This document shows, piece by piece, positions 17,981 to 26,153 of a stretch of 64,000 nt of DNA. The DNA comes from Octopus vulgaris (Eukaryota). The notes beneath the pieces are model-generated. The model was not told the DNA's origin. It was given only the letters and a program-made list of their open reading frames with translations, and did no database searches. Both the position numbers and the translations under genes were made by a program. The first letter of the stretch is position 1, and every line of letters begins with the position of its first letter. The DNA lies in NCBI GenBank assembly GCA_951406725.2, contig OX597818.1, forward strand, positions 134,292,001 through 134,356,000, in the 5' to 3' direction.

Positions 17981-18247
17981 AGCCAAATTTAAATTAACAC
18001 TGCTACAGAACTTTTCCCACATTGTGCATCTTTCACATCTTACAACTTGCCATCCTTCAGTATGCAATTATAATAACAACAAACACTTATCGTTACAAAA
18101 CATTATCGTTACAACTGCTGAAACTGACATTATCATAATATTGTGTTGCTAATCAATTAAAACCGTTACACAGAGATAAGAACTAAAGCTAAGAAACTCA
18201 TCACCATTTCTCTCTGATTTTAATAATGTGTATATAGATAAAATTGT

Positions 18248-18552
18248 GGAGGTGCAATGGCCTAGTGGTTAGGGCAGCGGACTCGCAGTCGCAGGATCAT
18301 GGTTTCGATTCCCAGACCGTGCGCTGTGTGTGTTTATTGAGCGAAAACACCTAAAAGCTCCATGAGGCTCCGGCTGGGGGTGGTGATCCCTGCTGTACTC
18401 TTTCACCACTCTTTCTCTCACTCTTTCTTCTGTTGACCTGCTCGCTTAGCCAGCGGGGTGGCATCGTTCGAAGGCTAAAACAATGCGAACGCATTGTGAC
18501 CAGCGATGTGTAGCAACATCTGATGGTCTGGTCAGTCATGTGATCACGTGAT
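18248..18552 (+). mobile_element. SINE family A' (A head, different 3' tail)
   Basis: TSD ATATAGATAAAATT. Second copy at 59010-59231 on the minus strand. Confidence 0.85.
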
Positions 18553-18599
18553 ATAGATAAAATTATAACTTGCAGCCTTATAATTTGTAAGCTCATGTC

Positions 18600-19095
18600 C
18601 TGTTTCACTCTGTCTCAACTGGAACCTTTAATTCATGATGAAAAGCTTGCTGAAAACTTTCCAAGTGTTGATGTAGCTCTTGGAATATATTTGATTTTGA
18701 TGGTCACTAGTTGTTCAGGAAAGAGGTTATTCAGTAAATTGGGGCTGATTAAGAATTCTTAATCGTCCAACTGAGAACCACAATAACACATGAAAGACTA
18801 AAGGCCCTGTACCTTTTGGATGCAGAGTGCAATGTTCTAAAATGATACATCATCATCATCATCATCATCGTTTAACGTCCGTTCTCCATGCTAGCATGGG
18901 TTGGACGGTTCGACCGGGGTCTGGGAAGCCAGGGGCTGCACCAGGCTCCAGTCTGATCTGGCAGAGTTTCTACGGCTGGATGCCCTTCCTAACGCCAACC
19001 ACTCCGCGAGTGTAGTGGGTGCTTTTTACGTGCCACCTGCACAGGTGTTTAAGGAAATCATTAAAGATTTTCCAGATGCAAAGTGTTGAAAGAAA
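18600..19095 (+). pseudogene. hAT transposase C-terminal dimerisation-domain remnant, interrupted by a family C insertion
   Basis: ENFPSVDVALGIYLILMVTSCSGKRLFSKLGLIKN resembles the hAT ...S/T.SAERSFS.L.LIK motif. Resumes as EIIKDF after 19046. Confidence 0.7.
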
Positions 19096-19810
19096 GACTT
19101 TTGCAGGTATTGTAGCAGTATGTAGTGGTAAAATAGTAAAACTGTACTTAGTTTAGATGATAAATTTTGCATTGACAGATACATTTAAACTTTTAATATG
19201 CCAACTAGACAATTTCATTTGCACACAATTGATGGGTGTTGAGATGTAAGTTTGGTGATTTGTCATAGATTTTTATTGTTGTGTATGAGGATCCTACCAA
19301 ACTTGAAGTAACCTGGGACCCTGCTAGGTTTAAATTTAGGCCTGCATCTACCCACTGTAGTCTACTGTAGTTCCTTACCACTTTACCTTTCCACAGCTCT
19401 CTGCTTCATTAGTTTTCTAACCACTGTTAACGTTGCATTAGATCCTCACTATAATACCTTTCTACAACCTTTTACCCCATTTACCAACAACTGACTGTTA
19501 GCCTACCATAGTTCATATCCACAATACTTTTTCACATCATTAGTCTATTTCGGTCATCCTCTTCAAACCATCCACCACAGACTTCTAATACCACTGCAAT
19601 AGTACCTACCCCTTTTAACTTGTTGTGTACTAGCTACTCTTAATTAAACTACTCACTTGTCCCTTGTCTTCCTTTTGACTTTATATACTATATTCAGCAC
19701 ATTACCCAATCATTTCTCTCATAAATGCAACAATCTGGTATCCTACGTTTCCATATTTTCCACTCAAAGCTTATAATACAAAGTTTTTCATTTCATTGGT
19801 TTCTTTGCAG

Positions 19811-20076
19811 GTAACATTCCATCTGCTACAACATCAGATTTCTACACATCTGTGTACATTGAAAGTTCATCAATTAATGATAATGTCAATACAACTGAAA
19901 TTAATGATAATGTCAATACAACAAAATCTTTTGTAGGTCGCCTTTCACAGTCAACAATATCACAATCAACACCAACCACTACAAAAGAATCTTCAGCAGA
20001 TGGTAACACTAAACAAATAAATTGCATCAGTATTATCATTGCGGTTCTTATTATTATTGGTGTCGTGGACACCTAA
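19811..20076 (+). CDS. Host gene last coding exon: Ser/Thr stalk plus C-terminal hydrophobic (probable GPI) signal
   Basis: Acceptor tttctttgcag|, phase 1. (C)NIPSATTSDFYTSVYIESSSINDNVNTTEINDNVNTTKSF...KESSADGNTKQINCISIIIAVLIIIGVVDT, TAA at 20074-20076. Candidate 3'UTR donor AAG|GTATTT at 20099/20100. Confidence 0.85.
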
Positions 20077-20136
20077 AAATATTCCCACGTGCAAAAAAGG
20101 TATTTTGTGATTTCTTAAAATTTCATTTTGAGTCTG

Positions 20137-20479
20137 GAAGGTGTTTATAAGCCATTTAAGAAACACACAAAAGCCGTTCGATTCACTTCAACATTTAAGT
20201 TTAATTTGTCAAAATATTTTCGTCGCTTTAAGACCGCGACCTGTTCACTGAGAAAAATCCGTGCTGCATCACGGATGCAGCACGGATTTTTGTCAGTGAA
20301 CAGGTCGTGGATTTTAGCGACGAAAATATTTTGACAAATTAAACTTAAATGTTGAAGTGAATCGAACGGCTTTTGTGTGTTTCTTAAATGGCTTATAAAC
20401 ACCTTCCTCGCTGCAATTGTTTTCGTTTCAGCACACGATCTCAGATCAAATTACTTGCTATGCGAGTACATCTCCGTAA
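20137..20479. mobile_element. Fold-back (PLE-type) non-autonomous insertion with two hammerhead motifs
   Basis: ~135-bp near-perfect inverted arms (20136-20270 / 20274-20407) plus a unique tail. 13-bp TSD CATTTTGAGTCTG at 20124-20136 and 20480-20492. Confidence 0.9.
20289..20338 (+). ncRNA. Type I hammerhead ribozyme, G3:C8 core variant
   Basis: UUUGUCA-GUGAACA-G-GUCGU(loop)GCGAC-GAAA-AUAUUU/UGACAAA: 7-bp helix I, 5-bp helix II, palindromic AAUAUU at helix III. Mirror copy at 20205-20255 (-). Confidence 0.7.
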
Positions 20480-20619
20480 CATTTTGAGTCTGTTAAGTGC
20501 AATTGTAGATTTTGCTATATCCTTTGAGTTAGCATAACTGGCTTTAGTGTAACTTGTCCCAGTGTTTTATATGTGTGGATATGTATTTTCTGAAATATTG
20601 TTCTCTGTAAGATGTACCA

Positions 20620-21897
20620 AGTGTAAGCTATGGACACATAAGAGGTGCAGTAATATCAAAGGAAGGCTAACCGGGAAGATAGTTTCTGTATGTGGCTGAT
20701 GCTCGGGAGCAATGAACACTGAAAACTTCTGCCACATTCCGGGGAGAAAAACTAGAAGTAGTTGATAGCTTCCGTTACCTAGGTGACCAAGTCAGTAGCG
20801 GGGGAGGGTGCGCTGAAAGTGTAGCTGCTAGAATAAGAATAGCCTGGGCAAAGTTCAGAGAGCTCTTACCTCTGCTGGTGACAAAGGGCCTCTCGCTCAG
20901 AGTAAAAGGTAGACTGTATGACGCGTGTGTACAAACAGCCATGGTACATGGCAGTGAAACATGGGCTGTGACTACCGAGGACATGCATAAGCTTGCAAGG
21001 AATGAAGCCAGTATGATCCAATGGATGTGTAATGTCAGTGTGTAAGTACCTTGAGAGAAAAGTTGGACCTAAGAAGCATAAGATGTGGTGTGCAAGAGAG
21101 AAGACTGCGCTGGTATCGTCATGTGGCGAGAATGGATAAGGATAGCTGTGTGAAAAAGTGCTACACCCTAGCAGTTGAGGGAACCTGTGGAAGAAGTAGA
21201 CCCAGGAAGACCAGGGATGAAGTGGTGAAGTACGACCTTCAAACTTTAGGCCTCACCAAGGAAATGACTAGTGACCAAGACTTTTGGAAATATGCTGTGC
21301 TTGAGAAGACCCGGCAAGCCAAATGAGACCATAACCTTGTGGCCTATGCCAGGAGCATAACTAGCTCACTTATACATACCTTTTCTTTCTTTGGTCACTA
21401 AACTCTGCTTGCGAAGACCTGTTGAGGCAAGTGAAATCAAAATCAAATTCGATGACTGGCATCCGTGCTAGCGGGGTGCAAAGAGCACCATACGAGTGTG
21501 ATCATTGATAGAGTAGCTAACCAGCTTCCATGCCAGAAGCACATAAAAGGCACTAATCGAGTGTGATCGTTACCACCATCGCCTTACTGGCACTTGTGTC
21601 CATGCTAGTAGGGTGCCAAGAGCACCATCCGAGCGGGATCGTTGCCAGAGCGACTAACAGGCTTCCGTGCTGGTGGCACGTAAAAGGCATCTTTCGAGTG
21701 TGATCGTTACCAGTGTCTCCTTACTGGCACCTGTGCAGGTGGCATGTGTAAAAAAGATTCGAGCGAGGTCGTTGCCAGTACCGCCTGACTGGCCCCCATG
21801 CCGGTGGCATGTAAAAGGCACCCACTACACTCTCGGAGTGGTTGGCGTTAGGAAGGGCATCCAGCTGTAGAAACTCTGCCAGATCAAGATTGGAGCT
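20620..21897 (+). mobile_element. RTE-clade LINE, RT C-terminus and 3' UTR
   Basis: LEVVDSFRYLGDQVSSGGG...RIRIAWAKFRELLPLL...HGSETWA and RRLRWYRHVARM. 3' UTR carries internal repeats. Confidence 0.88.
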
Positions 21898-22800
21898 TTA
21901 TCCTTCGACAATGACAAGTCTCTAACTAAATCATTTAACTCTCCTTGAGAAAATTGCTGTGGTACATCTTCATTTTCAATCGTGAAATCTGCATCCTCTT
22001 CGGTGTCTTCCACAGCAGTTGTTTTTTATTCAAGAAATTCATCTTTGTCAGACATCTGAAGGCCATTTTCTGGTGATATTGGAATAAGATGATCATCGTC
22101 GTTGTGTGGTACTGGTCTTCTTGCTGATTCCAAGTTGGGATACACAATCTTATGCTTGATCTTTACAGTAAATCCACATACATTAATGTTGCAAAAATAA
22201 CAGTCCATGAAATGATCCTTTGGCTCTCTCCATATCATAGGTATTGCAAACGGCATTGCTCTCATCCTCTTATTTAGCCAATCCCTTAGTCCATTTGAAT
22301 AAGCTGAGCAGATGATGTGTGGGGCCCATCTCTTATCTTGATCCCTGAGAGAGCAGCCAAAGTATAACTGGTAGATCTTTTTGATTTCACTTGTGATGAC
22401 ACGTTGCTGAGCTTTGGTGGTAAATGAACCACAGACATGACAAAATACATCAGGACTGTTCTTGCAATGCCTTGACATCCTGAGTAGATGATGATGATGA
22501 TTTGGTACCTTAAACAGGAAGTAAAATTTATGGAAAGAAAAGATTATGAAAACATAAAATTACAAAATGAATACAAATAGTTATAAAACAAAAGTCAGAA
22601 TTTACCTGTATAAGGTTAGGGTTAGGGTTACGTGTAGCGATACTGCTGATGGGAGTTATATACCTCTCTTATCTCATCAGAAAAACTGTGCCTGATAGAA
22701 GGAAACTGATTACATTTTTGAAATCTGCAGACAAAACTACATATAATATCCCTGATGAAAATTGGCTGTTGCCAAATTATAAGGTCATTCTTACTCAGTT
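21898..22800 (-). mobile_element. 5' portion of a DNA transposon, probably Chapaev3/CMC-type
   Basis: Cys-rich N-terminus FCHVCG...WAPHIIC...WREPKDHFMDCYFC...YPNLESARRPVPH, then FSQGELNDLVRDLSLSK after a frameshift. Superfamily assignment is from memory of the motif. Confidence 0.65.
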
Positions 22801-25300
22801 ATACTGAGGTCATGCTCATGTTAACAATAGAGATGGAAATTTCTGTTCAGTATTTTATTTGTCTGGTTCTAATTGATATATTAATGTGTTTTCATAAAAT
22901 AAAACTGAATGGTGGAGAAATGAATTGAGAATTTTTAAAACTGAAATTTAATTTCAAAATTTAACTCAAATTTCAATGAAAGTCTAAAAATTTTTAATTC
23001 AATTTTTACATCCTATTTAAGATAAAATTTTAATTTCAGAAAATTTACTCTGTATTTTAGATATGAAAGCCTCTCATTCATTTGAAATTTCAAATTAATA
23101 AACCTTCACTCTCCACTCCACCCCAGCAACAACCCACCACCTCAATAATACATGAATATGGGTGAAATAAGTAAAAAATGTTCTAGATGAACATTTCCTT
23201 ATCAGGATTCTGCAAGATATCATAAGAGGTTCTGCATGAAACTGATAAATAGACTAATTATATGAAAATATATTTTTTAATTATTCCGGTATATAATTTT
23301 ATAAAAATGACCTCTTAAAGGGGAATTGTCAACAAATGTGGTTTTAAACAAGCTTAAGACAAAATTTCTTAAACTTTGTCTAATGGATTTGCTAAACCCT
23401 TCAAAAACATTTATGATTAGTTCAATCTCTTTTATGTTCTTAGCTGCTGAGTGTTAAAAGATTATGTAAGTGGGTCTCTCTGAATCAAAAAATTTCTTTT
23501 GCTTTCTTTATCAATGAAGCATTTTTTGTTAAAATTTTTTTTAAATAATCTACTCTACAAGGTATTTATATTATGCATCATGAAACTGTTAAAAAGACTA
23601 ATTGAAATTATAAAAACAGAAAATATAAACATGTACAACAATTTTTGCTTAGAATCTCATGTGGATGTGAAGGATAGTTATTTCTTTAAACATGTTTTGT
23701 ATTTTCAGAAATCATTAAATACTTTGGATTCTGCACCATCTGCATTTGTCTAAGATTTAACCATGAATTAAGTATTTGTATACCAAATGACAAGCACAGG
23801 TTTCTCATTTAACTTTTCTCTTTTATTTTTCAGTTGCTTCAGTCGTTACACTGAAATGCCTTGAAAAAATTTCATTCAAACCAATTTCTTTTGGATTTTT
23901 AAAGTAGATTCAGTTCTCTATCTCGGTTTCTTTTCTATTAATATTGTGTTCAATAACCTAATACTTCATTCTGGCGAGCTGGCAGTAATATTAGCACACT
24001 GTCTTTACGTTCTGAGTTCAAATTCCGCTGAGATTGCTTTGCCTTTCATCCTTTCGGGGTTGATAAATTAAGTACCATTTATATATGGGAGTCGATCTAA
24101 TCAAAATGTATGTTTTTGACTATATAAAAAAAGTAAATCATTTTAATGAGAACTTTGTGCCCGGTGACAATGGTAGATTTTCTTGATTCAAAAAGACAAT
24201 TTTGTTAGCTTCAGCCATGTTTCGTAATTTCAAGTCAGCTTCTCTTAGCTCAAAAGAAATCTTCAGCAGCATGAAACTAATCACATGGCTACTAAGCAAT
24301 ATTATCATCCACACAAACATGTCTGCATCTGTGTAAACTAATAAATATTTCATACAAATCACACATGTATGTTATCATCATTATCATTTAAAGCATCTAT
24401 CTGTCTATCTGTCTGTCTATGTACCTATCTGTCTGTCTATCCTTCTATCTATCTGTGTGTGTGTGTGGGTTGTCTGTTTTGGCATGGTTTTTATGGACTT
24501 AGTGTTGTTTATGTGGCACCAACACTGGTGAGATCATCTTTGGCATGGTTTTTACTGCTGGATGTCCTTCCAAACACCAACCACTTTACAGTGTGGACTG
24601 GATGCTTTTTAAGTGGCACCAGCACTGGCAGGGTCACCCAGTAACTTGCAAAACAAAGATCCTTTGAGAGGGAAGGGGGTGTTGAAGGAGGTGATCTTGT
24701 GCCAGGTGATGAGATGTTATAGTGTGACAGAGAGACAGAAACAAGTGGACCATCTAATTATCTCTCCTCATACATTAGGCTTGTCTATCTATCTACTTCT
24801 ACAGCATACCCAAACACATCATCCCTCTTCTCTCATAAACTCTTGGAAACACCACCCACCCATCAACTACTACTCCTTCTACCTCATCAGATATCACCAA
24901 TTCATTCTCACTTTCTTTCTCCTAAATGTAACCAGCCATGTAACACTCCTACAAAAAGGACCTGCCCTACCGCAACCTCTTCTCTCACACCTCAACTCCC
25001 ATCTAACATAAGGTCTCAGCACCCCATACTTCCTCAAGTTTGTAAACTTGCAAACTACAAGGTGACCTCAATAGTGCCAATGAGTTGCAAAAAAGAAACA
25101 ACCAGTTTATGCTGTAAAGTGGCTGGTGTTAGAAGGGCATCCAGCCATAGCAGACACTGGTACATGATGCAGTCCTTGAACTCATCAGATACATGTTAAA
25201 CCATCCAACACATGCCAACATGGAACATGAATGTTAAATGATGAGGATGAAGACGATGATGATGATGATGATGATGATGATATGTATATGTGTGTGTATA

Positions 25301-26118: not shown

Positions 26119-26153
26119 GTTTAACGTTTCGAGTGGAGCTCTTCGTCAGAAAC
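26119..26153 (-). ncRNA. Minimal type I hammerhead ribozyme
   Basis: GUUU-CUGACGA-A-GAG(cucca)CUC-GAAACGUU/AAAC, with ACGU palindrome in place of helix III. Confidence 0.72.

Follow-up and report, generated by a model that had tools for sequence, protein, structure and literature searches.

On contig OX597818.1 of Octopus vulgaris, a palindromic insertion lies just beyond a host exon that carries a stop codon, and each of its arms holds a motif resembling a minimal hammerhead ribozyme with an exchanged core pair, G3:C8. The locus raises the question of what the insertion derives from, whether the exchange is compensatory or a sign of decay, and whether the motif still cuts RNA. We analysed a stretch of 64,000 nucleotides (the window; contig positions 134,292,001 to 134,356,000), to which the coordinates below refer (Table 1).

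Table 1. Features of the insertion and of the adjoining host exon, in window coordinates.
Feature	Position	Strand	Remarks
Host exon, Ser/Thr-rich C-terminus with hydrophobic end	19811..20099	+	X1 and X5 contigs match 19811 to 20099
Left target-site duplication (TSD), 13 bp, CATTTTGAGTCTG	20124..20136	.	
Inverted short copy of PLE pLTR end	20137..20270	-	element positions 1-134
Minus-strand hammerhead motif	20205..20255	-	G3:C8 core; 9-nt loop II of another subfamily
Head-to-head junction, 3 nt, ACG	20271..20273	.	
Direct copy of PLE pLTR end	20274..20420	+	element positions 1-147
Type I minimal hammerhead motif	20289..20338	+	helix I 20289-20295 with 20332-20338
First 30 codons of PLE ORF	20388..20479	+	frame runs into long ORF in tandem copy L129
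PLE tail	20421..20479	+	between two recurrent 3' ends (element ~147 and ~206); cf. PMC11167929
Right target-site duplication, 13 bp, CATTTTGAGTCTG	20480..20492	.	junction also bridged by run X18 contig

The architecture is the one described earlier in a sequence-only reading of this DNA, namely a 343-bp insert (20137-20479) within a 13-bp TSD, made of two inverted arms of about 134 nt around a 3-nt loop and followed by a tail. The arms (20136/7-20270 and 20274-20407) are 95.6% identical, and the whole insertion folds into a single hairpin (-239.6 kcal/mol, z = -27). What finds no support is the idea of a separate palindromic mini-retroelement, as a palindrome with a tail is a published product of Penelope-like element (PLE) insertion. 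The inserted DNA consists of two short copies, joined head to head, of the pLTR end that belongs to a young Penelope-like retrotransposon, and it is a by-product of an autonomous PLE, since this layout has been published and explained in vitro (PMC11167929). The inverted arm is 13 nt shorter than the usual short end (element position 147), and we infer that the direct copy starts at the 5' end of the RNA.

The motif in the direct arm differs from the canonical CUGANGA core with its C3:G8 pair in reading GUGAACA (20296-20302), with G3 at 20296 and C8 at 20301. The sequence-only reading had recognised this core correctly but overlooked an unpaired G that follows it (20303), between A9 and G10.1; its four-pair helix II (GUCG:CGAC) is in fact one of five pairs, GUCGU:GCGAC, including one wobble (20304-20308/20317-20321), in which G10.1:C11.1 corresponds to G20304:C20321. 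Further downstream are GAAA (20322-20325), the palindrome AATATT (20325-20330) and a U as N17 (20331), after which the cut is predicted. The notion of twin hammerheads is right in so far as both arms carry the G3:C8 motif, but the minus copy departs from the plus copy in its loop II and has lost one helix I pair through a change at 20252. As had been foreseen, a CUGANGA search is blind to this family, the insertion being devoid of any match to that pattern; an Rfam scan of 18000-23000 with E up to 10 recovered no hammerhead family, and its only hits were weak ones of miRNA type, due to the hairpin. Across 220 copies, a set selected in part on the core itself, U4, G5, A6, A9, G12, A13, A14, A15.1:U16.1 and H17 are each present in 96-100%. 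Elsewhere in the window, canonical minimal hammerhead motifs of other repeat families occur at 26149 (-) and 37607 (-).

A genome-wide search with the 17-mer that contains the core gave 7,171 exact matches, against 0 for the control. Starting from a similar copy, an ORF with RT and GIY-YIG motifs was reached, about 1 kb upstream in long copies, and the connection to a PLE RT/GIY-YIG ORF that had been suggested as a check proved real: of 50 loci chosen or retrieved through an ORF match, 45 contain the pLTR end, and the core is GTGAACAG in 53 of the 55 printed rows of ORF-linked loci (two loci were fetched twice). Locus L129 is a pLTR-ORF-pLTR tandem: a direct repeat of 1,118 bp (98.4%) flanks the ORF region, and the frame from the ATG equivalent to 20388 continues beyond the tail. 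Locus L114 has a frame of 1,024 aa with DKSG, YVDD, a CxxxCxxC linker and YIGET, and its endonuclease is detected by Pfam (PF01541, 25.4 bits, cut-off 22.6); Pfam RVT_1 gave no hit in L114 and a weak one, below the cut-off, in P0001 (E 0.004). The linker, CQSNCAVC at residue 896, precedes the endonuclease and has the form CX2-5CxxC common to Neptune and Nematis (PMC8557442). The features of EN+ PLEs are found here, namely a single ORF with RT followed by GIY-YIG, partial tandem pLTRs that include the ORF start, and insertions with an inverted 5' copy, a tail at one end and a TSD. The G3:C8 family is young, given that many ORF copies score identically; among named homologues the nearest carries the label Octopus vulgaris, and part of its sequence is encoded at 100% in the genome. 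A non-LTR retrozyme, which would form tandem head-to-tail copies with no coding link, was considered and rejected, as the copies are dispersed, single or head-to-head, and linked to the PLE ORF.

G3 and C8 are jointly conserved, as the sequence-only reading had predicted, GUGAACA being family-wide in the 7,171 exact matches, and its proposal of covariation rather than decay gains from the comparison with C3:G8 sister families. A canonical pattern that includes the extra nucleotide finds 30,569 matches in the genome, versus 2,200 for the control. In family C, the core is CTGAAGAG, with C3:G8, helix II GTCAC:GTGAC and unchanged spacing to the cut site, and a related ORF lies nearby in 4 of 30 loci. 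Family D is very young, with frames of up to 1,312 aa, the same helix II (GTCAC:GTGAC) and C3:G8. Both families share 41-56% amino-acid identity with the G3:C8 family, have an alignable, homologous hammerhead motif, and form its sister clade (SH-aLRT 99-100 in a quick tree of 30 proteins). N17 is C in family C and in L201 and U in both G3:C8 families; C17 to U17 as a third coordinated change is weak, family D, with C3:G8, also having U17.

The second G3:C8 family, the older family B, was found by DNA similarity alone, and has G3 in 21 of 21 copies, C8 in 12 and T8 in 7 (the query had T). Its N7 is changed to C, its loop II is rewritten (3 of 8 positions are the same), G:C replaces U:A at one helix I pair, and the AAUAUU of loop III (AATATT at this locus) is shortened to AAUU (AATT), still a palindrome. 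Because family B alters N7, loop II and loop III yet keeps the swap, we regard G3:C8 as compensatory. In an alignment of 40 sequences, hand-picked from three or four related families, pair 3:8 is G-C in 20, C-G in 17, G-U in 3 and unpaired in 0, and helix II pair 10.4 is G-C in 19 and A-U in 16, a pair count that excludes helix I, the 3' strand of which was shifted between families by the alignment. The covariation score of this alignment was reached in 0 of 500 shuffles, although, given the relatedness of the sequences, each pair stands for one evolutionary event, the 3:8 swap included. At this locus, the occurrence of the swap in both arms counts as a single inherited change rather than as two observations. 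No C3:G8 subfamily was found within the flanks of the G3:C8 family, the only such case among 28 double-change hits being a non-member; A3:U8, which makes up 9 of the 28, was not accepted as a second covariant and is taken as decay, both changes being transitions on mixed backgrounds. Judged from these alignments, the G3:C8 swap is an old, inherited compensatory change and not decay.

As to whether the motif still cuts, we think it probable that it preserves a slow self-cleavage that is conditional or assisted by protein. On its own, the right arm folds with ribozyme helix probabilities of 0.63-0.91. In a PLE hammerhead that cuts only with protein, the C3G/G8C double mutant partly restores activity (PMC11167929), and a G8C change is likewise partly rescued by C3G (PMC8495972). 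Minimal PLE hammerheads are inactive as monomers (PMC4209133); when two monomers were cofolded, the dimeric ribozyme was not the lowest-energy form, and the palindromic duplex alone contributes -2.0 to -3.8 kcal/mol. Copies do not pile up with their 5' ends at the predicted cut: roughly 10 of the 100 rows listed (of 295) start exactly there, a number like those at neighbouring positions as judged by eye; this absence could be compatible with cleavage if the cleaved RNA is lost.

The same absence (100 rows listed of 295) also favours a different explanation, which we regard as less likely but worth weighing: the motif would be a hammerhead homologue without a useful cutting rate, kept for its fold, in protein binding, RNA dimerisation or a promoter or translation role, and the swap would have arisen by drift through G3:G8. 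The retention of an uncut motif in thousands of copies points in this direction, as does the observation that ribozyme mutants still insert in vitro, unaffected (PMC11167929). It is further favoured by family D, the youngest sister, in which the core is CTGATGCG, with A9C, in 31 of 33 motifs (loci L254-L283, for instance L257:2925-2976 (+)), A9 followed by the extra G is found in 0 of 33, and many copies are identical despite A9C. G3:G8 copies are also in excess: among the 100 non-C8 rows listed position 8 is changed to G in 40, compared with 30 of 154 changes at neutral C/G sites (Fisher p = 0.0005), an indication that templates with a G3:G8 mismatch were copied. However, the 17 G3:G8 copies that were fetched and examined span several loop types and are not one subfamily, so that a single G3:G8 intermediate subfamily was rejected. 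Against a fold kept for other purposes also stands the pattern of conservation, in that U4, G5, A6, A9, GAAA and U16.1 are kept in both G3:C8 families, with N7 and the loops varying, and pair 3:8 is Watson-Crick in more than 90% of copies (7,171 versus 408 non-C8, counted with slightly different patterns). Two further observations concern these loci: L201, an older relative of family D, retains A9, and copies with the mismatched G3:G8 core (L284-L300), which come from several subfamilies, occur at roughly double the frequency expected from the neutral spectrum.

The ends of the copies bear on how such insertions form. Among 278 distinct hits in 193 loci, the 3' end falls at element position 140-155 in 117 and at 198-206 in 143, so that 260 finish at one of these two recurrent 3' ends. 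Of 81 head-to-head inverted pairs, 70 have one end of each kind, as in PMC11167929, and 27 have non-microsatellite duplications of 8-19 bp, most others lying in (TA)n. The same arrangement of a palindrome with a tail has been described for PLE insertions (PMC8557442, PMC3846280), and two internal RT start sites with extension on both strands were demonstrated in vitro (PMC11167929). At the other end, short copies start sharply just upstream of ATGCAG. AG precedes ATGCAG in 48 rows among the 100 of 699 matches listed, and by hand count 28 of these 48 have a G before the AG where the template has C or T; in a set of 30 loci, an untemplated G precedes AG in 11 of 17. Reverse transcription can copy a cap as an additional G, and we infer that the short copies reflect reverse transcription up to a capped RNA 5' end. 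The G may alternatively come from a very short spliced exon; a search for such an exon 1 found no shared sequence beyond G-A-G among the 100 of 699 matches listed. ORF-linked copies have a branch-point/acceptor-like motif just before the copy start, and a search for a spliceosomal intron in the pLTR found no donor and no spliced form. At L129:1196-1221, and in most of L084-L132, a conserved motif with branch point, pyrimidine tract and YAG-like end is located exactly where short copies begin, and could serve as an acceptor site, as an initiator, or in both roles.

The two arms of a palindrome carry different loop II subfamily marks in 5 of 39 cases, this locus included; at a second site the marks differ in 5 of 68, and at a third in 0 of 27. 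Arms with different marks come from two templates, either two RNAs or the two pLTRs of one RNA. We propose that the PLE mRNA is capped and that its first nucleotide is the A immediately preceding the equivalent of 20274, or a neighbour of that A. In AT-rich DNA, the two strands would be cut by the RT/GIY-YIG protein at points about 12-13 bp apart, priming would occur internally at ORF +33 and +92, and the RT would copy uncut RNA to its 5' end, after which the two cDNAs would join head to head to produce the palindrome, the tail and the TSD. The ribozyme would cut a minority of the RNAs, either as a dimer formed via the AAUAUU palindrome or together with the element's protein. It is highly improbable that the palindrome is instead a dedicated non-autonomous mini-element copied as a unit. 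The same combination of a short arm with a long loop and a tailed arm with a short loop does recur (L001, L012, L019, L062, L189), but L046 carries the reverse combination, the junctions vary by locus from 15-nt overlaps to gaps of more than 5 kb, many of them contain ORF sequence, and single-arm copies are common.

At the host gene, the stop codon is at 20074-20076 and the splice donor at 20099/20100, where contigs from X1 and X5 leave the genome and continue with other sequence; these two runs, guessed to be RNA, come from two studies with two organism codes and are represented by contigs only. The insertion had been placed about 40 nt after the donor, and its start is 37 nt inside the intron downstream of the exon with the stop codon. 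In run X18, of another organism code, a contig bridges the right junction, and the contig at the left junction extends into the insertion by only 26 letters. Masking of the ribozyme within a long hairpin, one of the two outcomes that had been envisaged, agrees with the folding, in which the pairing probability of the ribozyme helices falls to 0.00 when both arms are present (20100-20520), against 0.63-0.91 for the right arm alone. The other outcome, cleavage of the host pre-mRNA by the plus-strand hammerhead with an effect on host expression, deserves very little credence: the motif does have the same sense as the host transcript and is found 190-240 nt inside this intron, but the left arm is made before the right arm and pairs with it, contigs in two studies leave at the 20099 donor, and minimal PLE hammerheads are inactive as monomers (PMC4209133). 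At this locus the arms would pair, silencing the ribozyme fold and offering a substrate for A-to-I editing rather than cutting the host pre-mRNA. Across the family, A>G at 20386 accounts for 21% and 36% of depth in two RNA-type runs and for 0.1% in the other two, and T>C at 20177 and 20202 follows the same run pattern, which suggests A-to-I editing of the family's hairpins, as a signal that is not locus-specific and comes from runs of different animals. In itself, the locus is an ordinary intronic insertion.

Several other features were noted around it. The host exon contains a 27-bp in-frame tandem duplication (19872-19922), one unit of which is missing in a low-depth X19 contig. Two adjacent open frames at 20716-21326 (+) resemble the C-terminal part of an RTE-like LINE, and from about 20600 onwards the sequence has a high copy number in each of the four runs. 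A 177-aa open frame at 22026-22559 (-), with several Cys/His motifs, looks like a zinc-finger region derived from a transposon.

PLE hammerheads, palindromic PLE insertions and natural U3:A8 cores are already known (PMC4209133; PMC3088659). For a G3:C8 core, the literature searched gave engineered uses only (PMC3884650), and Lunse et al. 2017 could hold a precedent; no such core was found in the accessible text of PMC4209133, nor any match in the searchable supplements, and the words hammerhead and ribozyme do not occur in the accessible main text of the octopus repeat annotation (PMC13282606). The family is thus a natural, high-copy example of a swap known in that literature solely as a laboratory rescue mutant, and it illustrates how entire families, here with at least 7,171 matches, escape searches based on CUGANGA. 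As C3:G8, G3:C8, G3:G8 and A9C cores coexist in one genome, the need of PLEs for hammerhead cutting becomes directly testable. Genomic clues to how PLEs insert come from the sharply defined 5' start, with its untemplated G, and from the palindromes with mixed arms. A more ambitious synthesis, speculative and in our judgement rather improbable as a whole, would be that the G3:C8 hammerhead is still functional in an octopus PLE lineage, which would be the first natural family with such a core, and that the thousands of short copies of this lineage are strong-stop-like cDNAs of the 5' ends of capped, uncut mRNAs. If true, a cut in the downstream pLTR would give a terminal repeat for template transfer and the palindrome would pair two RNAs, explaining pLTR formation, the retention of upstream sequence, and palindromes with arms from templates of different subfamilies.

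Among known systems, the minimal hammerheads of metazoan PLEs (Cervera and De la Pena 2014, PMC4209133) likewise lie in the pLTR and share the unpaired nucleotide between 9 and 10.1, G10.1:C11.1 and the palindromic helix III region. Their copies are also mostly solo or truncated, and opposite-strand pairs 100-700 bp apart were already noted; their cores are C3:G8, with a natural U3:A8 in Schistosoma, whereas the octopus family has G3:C8. The Anolis element PAc (Poseidon; Frangieh et al. 2024, PMC11167929) has the same two internal RT starts within the ORF, defining the tail, and is alike in cutting and extension on both strands, in using uncut RNA as the main template and in the partial rescue by C3G/G8C, an engineered swap that in the octopus family is natural. 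The octopus tail, of about 59 nt, exceeds the usual 30-40, and the octopus ORF starts 56 nt after the cut site, in contrast to that of PAc, which starts inside the ribozyme (PMC11167929). With EN+ PLEs of the Neptune/Nematis type (Craig et al. 2021, PMC8557442; PMC3846280), to which it is likened by feature definitions alone, the octopus element shares an RT followed by a C-terminal GIY-YIG, CX2-5CxxC, a target bias for (TA)n, an inverted 5'-truncated copy, a tail at one end and a TSD. Finally, the natural U3:A8 hammerheads (Perreault et al. 2011, PMC3088659) represent a similar compensatory exchange at the tertiary pair 3:8, which there is a double transition and in the octopus G3:C8 family a double transversion.
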